Made by a program: the position numbers and the translations under genes. Positions 31,378-37,175 of a stretch of 64,000 nt of DNA are shown piece after piece (the first letter of the stretch is position 1; each line of letters starts with the position of its first letter). The stretch is from Escherichia coli (GTDB lineage Bacteria > Pseudomonadota > Gammaproteobacteria > Enterobacterales > Enterobacteriaceae). The DNA lies in NCBI RefSeq assembly GCF_003790525.1, contig NZ_CP033635.1. The stretch is one strand, 5' to 3'. Below the pieces are notes generated by a model, which had not been told where the DNA came from, did no database searches, and saw nothing but the letters and a program-made list of their open reading frames with translations.

Positions 31378-34300
31378 ATGAAATTTATGAACAGGACCAG
31401 TCTCCATTATTGTCGCCGCTCAGTACTTTCCTTATGGATATCTGCCTTGATATATGCCCCGCCCGGGATGGCGGCCTTCACTCCTGATGTTATTGGTGTG
31501 GTAAACGATGAGACTGTAGATGGCAGCCAAAAAGTAGATGAACGAGGTACAACAAATAACACTCATATTATCAACCATGGCCAGCAGAATGTTTATGGTG
31601 GGATATCTAATGAAAGTCTTATTGAATCTGGTGGATATCAAGATATAGGACGTCATAACAATTATGTGGGGCAGGCTAATAATACAACCATTAACGGGGG
31701 CAGACAGACAATTCATGACGGGGGTATTTCCACAGGTACAATAATCGAGAGTGGCAATCAGGACGTTTATACAGGTGGTATCAGCAATGGAACGACAATT
31801 AAGGGGGGTAATTCACACATAAGTGGGGGGACTGCGAATGGAACAATCATTGATGGTGGCAGCCAACGAGTAACAACTCAGGGGCATGTCGACAGTACAA
31901 CGATAAATAAGTCTGGCTCTCAGGACGTAGTACAAGGAAGTCTGGCAACGAACACAACCATAAATGGTGGTCGACAGTATGTTGAACAGAGCACAGTAGA
32001 AACAACCACCATCAAAAATGGCGGTGAGCAAAGAGTATATGAGAGCCGTGCGCTGGACACTACGATTGAAGGCGGAACTCAGTCTCTGAATAGTAATTCA
32101 ACGGCAAAAAATACGCAGATCTATTCTGGTGGTACGCAAATTGTTGATTACACCAGCACCTCGGATGTTATTGAAATTTATTCCGGTGGCGTGCTTGATG
32201 TTAGAGGTGGTATGGCAACAAATGTTACTCAGCACGATGGAGCCGCTTTAAAAGTAACGACTTACGATTTGACGGTGAGCGGTACGAATAGTGAAGGGGC
32301 ATTCTCCATCCACAATAACGTGGCAGACAATGTGTTGCTGGAAAACGGTGGTCATTTAGACGTATATGGTTCGGCAACCAGGACGATAATTAAAGATAAA
32401 GGAACAATGTCAGTTTTAACGAATGCTAAAGCTGATGCGACCCGAATAGATAATGGCGGGGTTATGGATGTCGCCGGAAACGCGACCAATACCATAATCA
32501 ATGGTGGTACACAGAATATTAATAATCATGGTATTGCCACTGGCACCAATATCAACAGTGGAACGCAAAATATCAAGAGCGGCGGGAAAGCTGACACGAC
32601 AAATATATCCTCCGGGAGCCGGCAGATTGTTGAGAAAGATGGTACGGCAACTGGCAGCAATATTAGCGCTGGAGGCTCGCTGATTGTCTATACCGGCGGT
32701 ATTGCACATGGGGTTAACCAGGAGACGGGCAGTGCTTTAGTTGCCAACACGGGCGCAGGGACTGATATCGAAGGATACAACAAGCTCTCTCGCTTCACTA
32801 TTATCGGAGGAGAGGCTAATTATGTTGTGCTGGAAAATACCGGCGAACTGACGGTAGTGGCTAAAACCTCGGCGAAAAATACTACCATTGATGCTGGCGG
32901 TAAGCTGATTGTCCAGAAGGAGGCTAAAACAGATAGCACCAGACTTAATAATGGCGGCGTTCTGGAGGTTCAGGACGGTGGTGAGGCTAAGCATGTTGAG
33001 CAACAATCCGGCGGCGCATTAATTGCTTCCACGACCTCCGGAACACTTATCGAAGGAACCAACAGTTATGGTGATGCTTTCTACATCAGGAATTCAGAAG
33101 CTAAAAATGTAGTGCTGGAAAACGCTGGCTCATTAACAGTCGTCACTGGTTCCCGGGCAGTTGACACGATTATTAATGCCAACGGCAAAATGGATGTTTA
33201 TGGAAAAGATGTTGGTACTGTACTTAATAGTGCGGGTACCCAAACAATATATGCCAGTGCCACTTCTGAAAAAGCAAATATCAAAGGTGGCAAGCAAACG
33301 GTATATGGTTTAGCCACTGAGGCAAATATCGAAAGTGGTGAACAAATTGTTGATGGTGGGTCAACAGATAAAACGCACATCAAAGGCGGCACGCAAACCG
33401 TTCAGAATTATGGTAAGGCGATCAATACCGATATCGTCTCTGGCCTACAACAAATTATGGCAAACGGGACAGCGGAAGGTTCCATTATTAATGGCGGTTC
33501 ACAGGTAGTTAATGAGGGCGGTCTGGCTGAAAACTCGGTACTTAATGACGGCGGCACACTCGATGTGCGGGAGAAAGGCAGCGCTACGGGGATACAGCAG
33601 AGTAGCCAGGGCGCGTTGGTGGCAACCACCAGAGCGACGCGGGTCACAGGGACACGCGCTGATGGCGTCGCGTTCAGCATCGAGCAGGGTGCGGCGAACA
33701 ATATCCTGCTGACAAATGGCGGCGTGTTAACCGTGGAGTCAGACACCTCTTCCGCCAAAACACAGGTCAATGCGGGCGGGCGGGAGATCGTCAAAACAAA
33801 AGCCACTGCGACAGGCACGACGCTCACCGGCGGCGAACAAATCGTCGAGGGTGTGGCGAATGAGACAACGATTAACGACGGCGGAATACAAACAGTTTCG
33901 GCTAACGGTGAGGCAGTAAAAACAACGATTAATGAAGGCGGTACGCTGACAGTCAACGATAATGGCAAAGCGACAGATATCATCCAGAACAGCGGTGCCG
34001 CTCTCCAGACGAGCACGGCTAACGGTATTGAAATCAGCGGTACTCACCAGTACGGCACCTTTTCCATTGCCGGAAATTTAGCGACCAATGCGTTGCTGGA
34101 AAATGGCGGTAATTTATTGGTATTAGCAGGTACCGAAGCCCGTGACTCCACGGTTGGCAAGGGTGGTGCAATGCAAAACCTGGGTCAGGACTCCGCCACA
34201 AAGGTTAACTCTGGCGGGCAATATACCCTTGGGCGGTCAAAAGATGAGTTTCAGGCTCTGGCCCGGGCAGAAGATCTCCAGGTCGCTGGCGGGACGGCAA

Positions 34301-35955
34301 TCGTCTATGCAGGTACGCTGGCGGATGCATCGGTCAGTGGCGCGACAGGAAGCCTGTCGTTAATGACGCCACGGGATAATGTTACGCCAGTTAAACTCGA
34401 AGGGGCGATCCGGATTACCGATAGCGCGACATTAACTATCGGAAATGGCGTCGATACGACGCTTACCGACCTGACGGCTGCCAGCCGGGGCAGTGTCTGG
34501 CTTAACAGCAATAATTCCTGTGCAGGTACCAGCAACTGCGAATATAGAGTAAACAGTTTGCTCCTCAACGACGGTGATGTTTATTTATCAGCACAAACAG
34601 CAGCGCCTGCCACAACTAACGGTATCTACAATACGCTGACAACCAGTGAACTTTCCGGCAGCGGTAATTTCTACCTGCATACCAACGTTGCAGGCTCCCG
34701 GGGCGATCAACTGGTCGTCAACAACAACGCCACTGGTAATTTTAAAATCTTTGTTCAGGATACCGGCGTCAGCCCTCAGTCTGACGACGCGATGACGCTG
34801 GTGAAAACAGGGGGAGGGGATGCTTCGTTTACGCTGGGTAATACCGGCGGTTTCGTTGATCTTGGGACCTATGAGTATGTCCTGAAAAGCGACGGCAACA
34901 GCAACTGGAACCTGACCAATGATGTCAAACCCAACCCGGACCCCAACCCAAATCCGAAGCCGGATCCAAAACCAGACCCAAAACCGGATCCGAAACCAGA
35001 CCCGACTCCCGATCCAACGCCGACACCCGTCCCGGAGAAACGCATCACGCCTTCTACGGCAGCCGTACTCAATATGGCAGCAACATTACCGTTGGTCTTT
35101 GATGCTGAGCTAAACAGTATTCGCGAGCGGTTGAACATAATGAAAGCGAGTCCACACAACAATAATGTCTGGGGGACGACGTATAACACCCGTAATAATG
35201 TCACCACCGATGCGGGTGCCGGGTTTGAGCAGACGCTGACCGGAATGACGGTGGGGATCGATAGCCGTAATGATATTCCTGAGGGGATTGCGACGCTGGG
35301 CGCTTTTATGGGTTATTCCCATTCACATATCGGTTTTGATCGTGGAGGACATGGCAGTGTGGGCAGTTATTCTCTGGGGGGCTATGCCAGCTGGGAACAT
35401 GAAAGTGGTTTCTATCTGGACGGTATCGTGAAGCTGAACCGCTTTGAAAGTAACGTAGCCGGTAAAATGAGCAGCGGTGGAGCCGCCAACGGCAGTTATC
35501 GCAGCAACGGGCTGGGCGGTCACATTGAAACCGGGATGCGATTTACCGATGGTAACTGGAACCTGACGCCGTATGCATCGTTAACGGGGTTCACCGCTGA
35601 TAACCCCGAATATCATTTATCCAATGGCATGGAATCGAAATCAGTCGATACCCGCAGTATATATCGTGAACTGGGCGCAACGCTGAGTTACAACATGCGT
35701 CTGGGGAACGGCATGGAAGTTGAGCCGTGGCTGAAGGCGGCTGTGCGCAAAGAATTTGTCGATGATAACCGGGTGAAAGTGAATAATGACGGTAATTTTG
35801 TCAATGATTTGTCGGGCAGACGTGGAATATACCAGGCAGGTATTAAAGCCTCATTCAGCAGTTCGTTAAGCGGGAATCTCGGGGTGGGGTATAGCCATGG
35901 TGCCGGTGTGGAATCCCCGTGGAACGCAGTGGCTGGTGTGAACTGGTCGTTCTGA
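31378..35955 (+). CDS. ypjA: AIDA-type autotransporter adhesin-like protein YpjA
   Basis: Signal peptide MKFMNRTSLHYCRRSVLSLWISALIYAPPGMA (alternative start 31387); long passenger with ~19-aa beta-helix repeats (GG.Q.V..GG.A..T.I); Pro-rich linker; C-terminal beta-barrel ending ...AGVNWSF. The track ORF starts at an upstream GTG (31258). Confidence 0.85.
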   Translation: MKFMNRTSLHYCRRSVLSLWISALIYAPPGMAAFTPDVIGVVNDETVDGSQKVDERGTTNNTHIINHGQQNVYGGISNESLIESGGYQDIGRHNNYVGQANNTTINGGRQTIHDGGISTGTIIESGNQDVYTGGISNGTTIKGGNSHISGGTANGTIIDGGSQRVTTQGHVDSTTINKSGSQDVVQGSLATNTTINGGRQYVEQSTVETTTIKNGGEQRVYESRALDTTIEGGTQSLNSNSTAKNTQIYSGGTQIVDYTSTSDVIEIYSGGVLDVRGGMATNVTQHDGAALKVTTYDLTVSGTNSEGAFSIHNNVADNVLLENGGHLDVYGSATRTIIKDKGTMSVLTNAKADATRIDNGGVMDVAGNATNTIINGGTQNINNHGIATGTNINSGTQNIKSGGKADTTNISSGSRQIVEKDGTATGSNISAGGSLIVYTGGIAHGVNQETGSALVANTGAGTDIEGYNKLSRFTIIGGEANYVVLENTGELTVVAKTSAKNTTIDAGGKLIVQKEAKTDSTRLNNGGVLEVQDGGEAKHVEQQSGGALIASTTSGTLIEGTNSYGDAFYIRNSEAKNVVLENAGSLTVVTGSRAVDTIINANGKMDVYGKDVGTVLNSAGTQTIYASATSEKANIKGGKQTVYGLATEANIESGEQIVDGGSTDKTHIKGGTQTVQNYGKAINTDIVSGLQQIMANGTAEGSIINGGSQVVNEGGLAENSVLNDGGTLDVREKGSATGIQQSSQGALVATTRATRVTGTRADGVAFSIEQGAANNILLTNGGVLTVESDTSSAKTQVNAGGREIVKTKATATGTTLTGGEQIVEGVANETTINDGGIQTVSANGEAVKTTINEGGTLTVNDNGKATDIIQNSGAALQTSTANGIEISGTHQYGTFSIAGNLATNALLENGGNLLVLAGTEARDSTVGKGGAMQNLGQDSATKVNSGGQYTLGRSKDEFQALARAEDLQVAGGTAIVYAGTLADASVSGATGSLSLMTPRDNVTPVKLEGAIRITDSATLTIGNGVDTTLTDLTAASRGSVWLNSNNSCAGTSNCEYRVNSLLLNDGDVYLSAQTAAPATTNGIYNTLTTSELSGSGNFYLHTNVAGSRGDQLVVNNNATGNFKIFVQDTGVSPQSDDAMTLVKTGGGDASFTLGNTGGFVDLGTYEYVLKSDGNSNWNLTNDVKPNPDPNPNPKPDPKPDPKPDPKPDPTPDPTPTPVPEKRITPSTAAVLNMAATLPLVFDAELNSIRERLNIMKASPHNNNVWGTTYNTRNNVTTDAGAGFEQTLTGMTVGIDSRNDIPEGIATLGAFMGYSHSHIGFDRGGHGSVGSYSLGGYASWEHESGFYLDGIVKLNRFESNVAGKMSSGGAANGSYRSNGLGGHIETGMRFTDGNWNLTPYASLTGFTADNPEYHLSNGMESKSVDTRSIYRELGATLSYNMRLGNGMEVEPWLKAAVRKEFVDDNRVKVNNDGNFVNDLSGRRGIYQAGIKASFSSSLSGNLGVGYSHGAGVESPWNAVAGVNWSF
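34930..35034 (+). repeat. Tandem Pro-rich (NP/KPDP/TP) linker repeat inside ypjA
   Basis: Encodes PNPDPNPNPKPDPKPDPKPDPKPDPTPDPTPTPVP from near-identical 12-nt units (ccg gat cca aaa / cca gac cca aaa). Confidence 0.85.
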
Positions 35956-35965
35956 CCATCAACGA

Positions 35966-35992
35966 AAAAGCCCACATCTGTGGGCTTTCATA
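35966..35992 (+). terminator. Putative ypjA terminator hairpin
   Basis: aaagcccaca-tctg-tgggcttt stem-loop 11 bp after the stop codon; the T-run is short. Confidence 0.45.
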
Positions 35993-36115
35993 TCACCAGG
36001 AGCCGCGGCTCCTTTGCGTATCCTTTTTTGTCTCCTCACCGTCTGGTCGGTGTCCTGCTGAGACTGCTAACTTCCTGTTTTTATTGGTGTTGTCCTTACA
36101 CCGTCCAATCATGAT

Positions 36116-36478
36116 TGGTGGAGCTGGCGGGAGTTGAACCCGCGTCCGAAATTCCTACATCCTCGGTACTACATGCTTAGTCAGTCTTTACATTCGCTTG
36201 CCAGCTGCGGACGGACACGCCACTAACAAACTAGCCTGATTAAGTTTTAACGCTTCAACCCCAGGCAGGGCTTCCACGCGATCTCTTTTGGGTTTGACCT
36301 CTCTTGATCCCCGTCCTAAGAGCGGAGGCTAGGGAGAGAGGGCTCTAAGCAGGTTATTAAGCTGCTAAAGCGTAGTTTTCGTCGTTTGCGACTATTTTTT
36401 GCGGCTTTTTACGAGGCCAACCGCCCCTCGGCATGCACCTTGGGTTTCGCAAATCCCGTCGAATCCAGAATCAGCCCC
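36116..36478 (-). ncRNA. ssrA: tmRNA (SsrA), 363 nt
   Basis: Reverse complement reads GGGGCTGATTCTGGATTCGACGGGATTTGCGAAACCC...GCGGGTTCAACTCCCGCCAGCTCCACCA; includes the tag reading frame region. Confidence 0.95.
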
Positions 36479-36692
36479 AATGTGTGACGGTAAGTATACC
36501 AGATTCATGAGTGCCATGACCAGCCTCAATGGCGTTATCATTAAAGATTTAGCACCCATGTAGCCTGATTTTTATTCGATTAAGCAATGGGATGGCAACA
36601 TTTGTGTCGGAAGTGATAGCCAATAAGATGTTCATTCGCGCCGCCGGAGAGGGAGGCGCGGTGAGGAACTGGTCAATAATTGCAGTGCAGGT

Positions 36693-37175
36693 TTAACGGT
36701 GGGCGTTTTTCATGATACGCGCTTTATCCACCTGCCATTCGCGTTCTTTGATATCTGAACGTTTATCATGCTGTTTCTTACCTTTGGCGACGCCGATTTT
36801 TACTTTGCACCAGGCATTTTTCCAGTACAGGGAGAGCGCCACTACGGTATAGCCTTCTCGATTGACGCGACCGTACAATGAGTCCAGTTCGCGCTGGTTG
36901 AGAAGTAACTTGCGGGTACGGGTAGGATCGCACACCACATGCGTGGAGGCCACAGCCATTGGCGTGATGTTAGCGCCAAACAGAAATGCCTCTCCGTCAC
37001 GCAGAAGGACGTAGCTGTCGCTGATATTGGCTTTTCCTGCGCGCAGGGATTTAACCTCCCAGCCTTGCAGGGCAAGTCCCGCCTCGAACTCTTCTTCGAT
37101 AAAGTATTCGTGACGGGCGCGCTTGTTAAGCGCGATGGTCGCTGAACCAGGTTTATGTGCTTTTTTCTTCGTCAT
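36693..37175 (-). CDS. smpB: SsrA-binding protein SmpB
   Basis: 160-aa [51 protein letters not shown]... Confidence 0.95.

Follow-up and report, generated by a model that had tools for sequence, protein, structure and literature searches.

Few, lineage-linked lengths of an X-Pro linker in the Escherichia coli autotransporter YpjA/EhaD and an apparently hypervariable (NP)n counterpart at the ycgV locus

On the plus strand of a 64,000-nucleotide (nt) stretch of Escherichia coli DNA (contig NZ_CP033635.1; the whole stretch is referred to as the window), a large autotransporter gene encodes a passenger and a beta-barrel separated by a linker of alternating X-Pro dipeptides. A reading made from the sequence alone had named the gene ypjA and described the linker as encoded by near-perfect tandem 12-nt units, a possible substrate for slipped-strand changes in length. 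This raises the question of whether the linker is a contingency locus that switches rapidly, or a spacer whose length is stable within lineages. With good confidence, the region can be read as encoding the type Va, AIDA-I/Ag43-like autotransporter YpjA/EhaD, with an X-Pro spacer that occurs in a few stable, haplotype-linked lengths rather than switching fast in the manner of a contingency locus.

The gene itself was already on record. The 5.5 kb between positions 31000 and 36500 match strain SC516 of E. coli with 100% identity, and in that strain the gene is annotated ypjA, and the coding sequence is a 100% match to ypjA of NZ_CP025048.1, which encodes WP_024210541.1, 'adhesin-like autotransporter YpjA/EhaD'. 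This match, together with the domain searches described below, bears out the name given in the sequence-only reading. Its claim of an intact open reading frame (ORF) is likewise correct, as the plus-strand frame runs uninterrupted to a stop at 35955. An in-frame ATG lies at 31378, the start assumed in that reading, and RefSeq and the Prokaryotic Genome Annotation Pipeline (PGAP) place the start 9 nt further on, at 31387 (MNRTS..., 1522 amino acids, aa), with a GAGG motif 9 nt upstream of it. Across the alignment of window positions 31006-36120, nucleotide identity is 95.7% to the ypjA of K-12 and 95.9% to that of O157; for the coding sequence alone, identity to K-12 ypjA is ~95.4%. The high full-length identity and the shared neighbours by the ssrA integration site identify the gene, at the level of sequence, as ypjA/ehaD, an adhesin gene of E. 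coli that is already known and whose product has been described as an adhesion and biofilm autotransporter of K-12 and enterohaemorrhagic E. coli (EHEC) (PMC3796261, PMC4076661, PMC9289746, PMC12547504). With YpjA of K-12 (b2647) and EhaD of EHEC O157:H7 it shares the gene, the domain order, the RefSeq name and the position between ileY-side remnants and ssrA. It differs from them in linker length (36 aa in the window protein of 1522 aa, 38 aa in the K-12 protein of 1526 aa, and 40 aa in O157), in one 6-nt passenger indel at ~32359, and in having no prophage or island before ssrA in the window.

Judged by sequence matches and a predicted structure, the protein is a classical (type Va) autotransporter with all of the canonical parts: a signal peptide, a beta-helical passenger with an autochaperone domain, and a barrel with a preceding helix (Table 1). 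The signal peptide was recognized by eye from its basic n-region, hydrophobic core and GMA-A cleavage-like site. In the 1525-aa numbering that starts at 31378, the Pfam family AIDA (PF16168) matches ten stretches (E=5e-139), Pertactin (PF03212) matches residues 1058-1180 (E=5e-45), and the Autotransporter beta-domain (PF03797) matches residues 1264-1503 above cut-off (E=1.3e-45), so that the AIDA repeats and the C-terminal barrel expected from the earlier reading were both found. In addition, the NCBIfam autotransporter barrel model TIGR01414 matches with E=1.3e-98, and TIGR04415, a 19-aa strand-loop-strand 'O-heptosyltransferase target repeat', matches 13 stretches. Autocorrelation of the passenger peaks at lags 18, 19, 35, 36 and 54, exceeding all shuffles. 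Given a passenger of ~1020 aa with this 18/19-aa periodicity, ~55 coils of 18-19 aa are expected, and the earlier description of dozens of ~19-aa beta-helix repeats was therefore a fair one. The passenger DNA contains no long internal repeats; what repeats there are form weak families of 40-47 nt that are 60-74% identical, on which ground internal passenger repeats were rejected as recombination substrates.

The C-terminal 522 aa match by sequence the structures of P.69 pertactin (1dab), Vag8 (7akv) and BrkA (3qq2; E=9e-25 for BrkA). The AlphaFold2 (AF2) model of this part has a mean predicted local distance difference test score (pLDDT) of 84 and a confident beta-helix end. In the numbering of the modelled fragment, residues 184-215 have a pLDDT of <50 and no secondary structure and correspond to the linker; nowhere else between the autochaperone domain and the pore helix is the model of low confidence and free of structure. 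These residues are followed by a 33-residue helix (222-254) at high pLDDT, which by analogy may plug the barrel, and by the barrel strands (259-521).

Table 1. Features of the ypjA region and of the related arrays at the ycgV locus (window coordinates unless a locus is named).
Feature	Position	Strand	Basis
Intergenic region and 5' leader of ypjA	31075..31386	+	
ypjA/ehaD coding sequence (1522 aa + stop)	31387..35955	+	identity to annotated ypjA
Predicted Sec signal peptide MNRTSLHYCRRSVLSLWISALIYAPPGMA, cleaved before A	31387..31473	+	inspection of translation
Beta-helical passenger, AIDA-type 18-19-aa coils	31474..34548	+	PF16168, TIGR04415, periodicity
Pertactin-like C-terminal passenger (autochaperone) domain	34549..34917	+	PF03212, 1dab/7akv matches, AF2
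36-aa (XP)18 proline-rich linker	34927..35034	+	translation, Tandem Repeats Finder, AF2
Alpha-helical segment ahead of barrel	35050..35148	+	AF2 helix 222-254, Vag8/BrkA alignment
Outer-membrane beta-barrel translocator	35161..35952	+	PF03797, TIGR01414, BrkA 3qq2, AF2 strands 259-521
ssrA (transfer-messenger RNA, tmRNA)	36116-36478	-	ARAGORN; Rfam RF00023, 295.8 bits
(NP)n array, ycgV locus	L005 3928-4179		
(NP)n array, ycgV locus	L008 3896-4153		
(NP)n array, ycgV locus	L009 3896-4129		
(NP)n array, ycgV locus	L010 3898-4143		

The linker reads KPNPDPNPNP(KPDP)4TPDPTPTPVP, that is, 18 X-Pro dipeptides in 36 aa, and begins at 34927 rather than at 34930 as in the earlier coordinates (34930-35034). 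Its (KPDP)4 core (34957-35004) is perfect as protein, and the DNA units diverge at synonymous positions. Tandem Repeats Finder (TRF) matches 34948-35005/35017 either with a period of 12 nt (4.8 copies, 76% matches) or with a period of 24 nt (2.4 copies, 82%), and no word longer than 11 nt recurs exactly within the linker. The units are thus far from the near-perfect repeats described earlier, and, being only 76% alike with exact repeats of no more than 11 nt, they form a poor substrate for slippage. Reading these degenerate amino-acid repeats as slippage-prone is wrong for the window copy.

Linker lengths were compared among 5,426 complete E. coli genomes, ~2,500 (~2,498) of which carry the region, with allele-specific queries of 306-318 nt; the resulting counts rest on identity bands and on 60-row samples per search. 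Four lengths were read from the DNA of representative ypjA loci. The 36-aa linker of the window (SC516, 40EC) has four KPDP units, and in the 38-aa linker of K-12 and WCHEC005237 an inserted NP separates the third KPDP from the fourth (3+NP+1). The 40-aa linker of O157:H7 and O145 has an NPNP duplication upstream of a KPDP block of four units, and a rare 30-aa linker, in strain 1504D004, has lost two KPDP units (24 nt). The 36-, 38- and 40-aa queries matched 579, 1282 and 268 genomes, respectively, at >=99% identity, and 203, 33 and 128 at 95-99%, the latter bands not being pure length classes, as 40EC (36 aa) sits in the band of the 40-aa query. Together, the three queries account for ~2493 of the ~2498 carriers, and lengths of 36, 38 and 40 aa for ~99%. 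Three systematic 60-row samples gave 36:38:40-aa ratios of 19:31:8, 19:31:7 (with a single 30-aa allele) and 18:31:9.

Every class of length matches a discrete identity class, that is, a single-nucleotide polymorphism (SNP) haplotype. Over 312 nt, 26 of the sampled rows show 100% identity to the K-12-type allele, and linker length does not vary among the K-12 derivatives or among the O157:H7 genomes in the samples. The sampled carriers of the linker alleles come from many hosts and countries. The spans of records across the linker region agree, nearly without exception, with changes in multiples of 6 nt; a few, in the records H93, H315 and H316, are 1 nt away from a multiple of 3 (603 vs 604; 606 vs 607), through either a genuine frameshift or faulty assembly of the repeat. 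The number of KPDP units is nearly constant; most length differences consist of adjacent NP dipeptides (+6 or +12 nt), and every length difference seen in the sequences that were read lies within the ORF and amounts to a multiple of 6 nt. Since the in-frame indels of six aligned ypjA alleles are confined to two sites, a 6-nt indel near 32359 and the linker with its four lengths, the linker is the main indel site of the gene. Its polymorphism is slow, lineage-linked and in frame, and concerns mostly NP rather than KPDP number. The earlier proposal of a length variable by slippage is thus right in that length differs among strains, and fails in that the change is slow and tied to lineages and the repeat degenerate. 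As a practical matter, linker length can serve as a simple marker of ypjA haplotypes, with three stable alleles.

The behaviour expected of a fast repeat is found at a different locus. In some E. coli, a ypjA-like autotransporter gene lies between ymgJ and minE (the ycgV locus, outside the window), where PGAP also names it ypjA. Its passenger is shorter (1110-1156 aa), as two passenger segments are missing in comparison to the window gene. The ~380-nt upstream region and the 5' end (window 31007-31745 vs L006 and L008) are ~87% identical to those of the window gene, while the last 2.4 kb (window 33540-35965) are 94-97% identical, with the similarity ending 10 nt after the stop codon. As this 3' portion is as alike between the two loci as among ypjA orthologs, it points to gene conversion, and the sequences suggest that these two chromosomally distant loci are under concerted evolution or gene conversion. 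The linker of the paralog is either ypjA-like (38 aa in L006) or, in many strains, consists purely of (NP)n, with as many as ~37 NP dipeptides and with runs of AATCCA that extend to 15 perfect copies. In the four (NP)n alleles read, the total linker is 78, 82, 84 or 86 aa long; three of the four are from pig enterotoxigenic E. coli (ETEC) isolates with identical flanking proteins, yet their arrays differ in length. At least 15 different lengths of the linker region, from 553 to 667 nt and in 6-nt steps, occur among the 60 best matches. The (NP)n arrays of the paralog therefore look genuinely hypervariable, even among apparently closely related pig ETEC, and the idea of slipped-strand variation holds for this paralog and not for the window copy. 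The hypervariable (NP)n linker, with the apparent exchange of sequence between the paralog and ypjA, is new in a mild degree. For ypjA little changes, as this adhesin gene had been annotated and studied before, and its linker resembles the proline-rich repeat regions of other autotransporters.

A mechanism can be proposed for how the spacer works and how its lengths arise. As in other members of the family, YpjA would be exported by Sec, its C-terminal 12-stranded barrel would insert in the outer membrane with the alpha-helix in the pore, and the ~1000-aa beta-helix passenger would fold outside, starting at the pertactin-like autochaperone end, and mediate adhesion and biofilm formation. The 36-aa (XP)18 segment would then lie outside the barrel, between the autochaperone domain and the helix, as an unstructured or extended polyproline-II-like spacer that determines how far the adhesive beta-helix stands from the membrane. 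At ~3.1 Å per residue, 36 aa would span ~11 nm, and the reach of the spacer would be 9-12 nm across the ypjA alleles and ~27 nm in the longest alleles of the paralog. Occasionally, rare replication slippage may add or remove in-frame units of the degenerate 6/12/24-nt repeat. In the alleles read, the NPNP duplication, the NP insertion and the loss of two KPDP units may be such events, which would have given the stable 30/36/38/40-aa series.

A true contingency locus, in which slipped-strand mispairing changes the number of KPDP units fast within a clone and produces rapid antigenic or length variation, would differ from this slow process in rate. That TRF detects a 12/24-nt tandem period, that linker lengths differ among strains, and that the pure (NP)n arrays of the paralog vary among pig ETEC isolates with identical flanking proteins would all agree with it. 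As a reading of the ypjA linker, though, it is already largely refuted, and the chance that it is correct is very slight. The DNA units lack the length and perfection looked for in such a locus, the three haplotype-tied lengths cover nearly all carriers, and length classes that are each common to hundreds of genomes are unlike a fast slipped-strand locus. Uniformity within the sampled K-12-derived and O157:H7 genomes points the same way, and differences in repeat number among close isolates were seen only in the (NP)n arrays of the ycgV locus. Furthermore, every change is in frame, leaving no possibility of an on/off switch, and the units lie in the ORF rather than in a promoter and are multiples of 6 nt; on/off phase variation was rejected because all repeat units are multiples of 3 nt. 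A different origin for the same alleles, mainly through gene conversion or recombination with the ycgV-locus paralog or through horizontal exchange of ypjA rather than through local slippage, would explain why the shared 3' portion includes the linker and ends so soon after the stop codon. It would also account for the ypjA/K-12-like 38-aa linker of L006, where other copies have (NP)n, and for the mosaic identity of ypjA (92-98% per 500 nt). Against it, what distinguishes the alleles is the exact duplication or loss of local units (NPNP in O157; 24 nt in 1504D004), most simply produced by slippage, and the (NP)n array is absent from the ypjA locus in all sampled rows. As the main source of the alleles, this exchange is thus rather unlikely, and import from the paralog would be a partial alternative to slippage.

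A serious rival is neutrality, in which the linker is a tolerant low-complexity spacer and its alleles are markers of lineage drift. This is a credible reading that falls somewhat short of being the probable one. The few haplotype-linked alleles, the small range of lengths at the ypjA locus (30-40 aa), the free variation of linker composition across genera and the lack of structure in the AF2 model are all in its favour, whereas different genera retain an (XP)n stretch in the same place, the XP register is preserved by all observed indels, and the 78-86 aa reached by the paralog would alter the reach several-fold, which is unlikely to be inconsequential for a surface adhesin. At the other extreme, linker length might be a tuned parameter of reach, with the paralog acting as a fast generator of lengths that gene conversion, through the shared 3' 2.4 kb, feeds into ypjA. 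This is improbable; if true, the two loci would work together as a system that diversifies the length of a surface adhesin, in which an (XP)n rod sets the projection through O-antigen or capsule. The hexanucleotide hypervariability of the (NP)n paralog could be used to test spacer length against adhesin function beneath O-antigen or capsule. For YpjA/EhaD with its few stable linker lengths, several observations weigh on the opposite side. The 94-97% identity of the 3' 2.4 kb between the loci means that the indels could have come from the ycgV-locus paralog by gene conversion instead of local slippage. The allele counts, drawn from identity bands and 60-row samples, under-sample rare alleles (<~2%). 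In addition, a promoter scan of 30900-36600 placed no plus-strand sigma-70-like site in 31075-31377, the nearest such sites being on the minus strand (31124-31095 and 31092-31064), and the AT-rich upstream flank (37.8% GC for 29000-31386 vs 49.8% for ypjA and 49.4% for the whole window) is in keeping with ypjA being silenced or cryptic.

Among known systems, variation of this kind has a close counterpart. In Bordetella, the pertactin prn alleles vary in the number of GGxxP repeats in region 1 and of PQP repeats in region 2. Pertactin (P.69) and YpjA both have a proline-rich repeat at the C-terminal end of a beta-helical passenger and in-frame, stable copy-number alleles, which in YpjA lie directly after the match to the Pertactin domain. 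They differ in that the YpjA linker is built of XP dipeptides (KPDP/NP) and sits after the pertactin-like domain. By this analogy, the proline-rich regions of Bordetella pertactin are the closest counterpart of the linker polymorphism, which is an ordinary one. The (EP)n/(KP)n spacer of TonB shares alternating X-Pro with charged residues and plausibly an extended polyproline-II rod, and the linker gives weak compositional matches below cut-off to the TonB model (E=7.6e-4) and to Trypan_PARP. TonB belongs to a different protein family, however, acts in the periplasm instead of at the cell surface, and has no homology to YpjA. A full-text search of PMC and bioRxiv papers on slippage in proline-rich linkers of autotransporters found nothing on YpjA.

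With regard to the wider family, the self-associating autotransporters (SAATs) AIDA-I, Ag43 and TibA have the same AIDA-type beta-helix repeats, autochaperone and beta-barrel, and a review places YpjA in their phylogenetic group (PMC9289746). The NCBIfam equivalog models NF033177 (Ag43) and NF033176 (AIDA-I) match partially, with 346.8 and 271.2 bits; as both scores are far under the 1200-bit cut-off, the protein is related to Ag43 and AIDA-I without being either. Despite the match to TIGR04415, no heptosyltransferase gene of the aah/tibC type that could serve as a glycosylation partner is annotated nearby. At ~305-330 residues from the C-terminus, (XP)n stretches that are 8-32 aa long and varied in composition also occur in homologs from E. 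albertii, Citrobacter, Salmonella and others. The protein-database search behind this comparison gave mostly fragments and YejO-type relatives and was used only for the linker. An X-Pro spacer at this distance from the C-terminus is conserved in the clade, with its length and residues free to change.

Conservation extends upstream of the gene. All ypjA loci share an almost identical stretch of ~200 nt ahead of the start, which is ~93-95% identical to the sequence ahead of the ycgV-locus paralog. This stretch includes a 39-codon ORF annotated in RefSeq (31203-31322, plus strand; WP_001120794.1, hypothetical protein) that is identical in all ypjA loci examined. In comparison with the paralog copies, all eight of its substitutions are nonsynonymous, including one that changes ATG to GTG; the ORF is therefore probably not coding, and a leader peptide of 39 aa was rejected on the same grounds. 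The conservation over this ORF looks instead like that of a non-coding leader or regulatory region. An Rfam search of 30500-36700 found only the tmRNA, with no match in the ypjA leader, and folding of 31180-31400 gave a z-score of -0.39, which is no evidence of structure. Further upstream lie a recombinase remnant, the ypjCB pseudogene and ileY, and the region 29000-31386 looks like decayed horizontally acquired DNA that could be a target of silencing.

Downstream, ssrA converges on ypjA across a 160-nt gap, in agreement with the sequence-only reading, which had placed the two genes side by side. The 3' end of ssrA is a well-known integration hot spot. In the window this site (36116-36160; junction 35956-36115) is unoccupied, and the uninterrupted ypjA-ssrA junction is kept in 1,388 of the 5,426 complete genomes. 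In K-12, CP4-57-type genes lie between ypjA and ssrA, and in O157:H7 an integrase-bearing element does; in both, a short copy of the ssrA 3' end is left next to ypjA. The gene itself is inactivated in some pathogens. In O157:H7 MB9-1 (L003), at the equivalent of ~34164, one T has been lost from GGGTGGGG, leaving a run of seven G (G7) and a frameshift in ypjA, and in O145 RM9872 an IS3-family element (L004 4619-5832) removes the C-terminal barrel. On the opposite side of the gene, ARAGORN calls a tRNA-Met with a CAT anticodon at 28181-28256 (plus strand), where RefSeq annotates a tRNA-Ile of the ileY type at the matching SC516 gene; in tRNAs of this type the CAU anticodon is modified and reads AUA.

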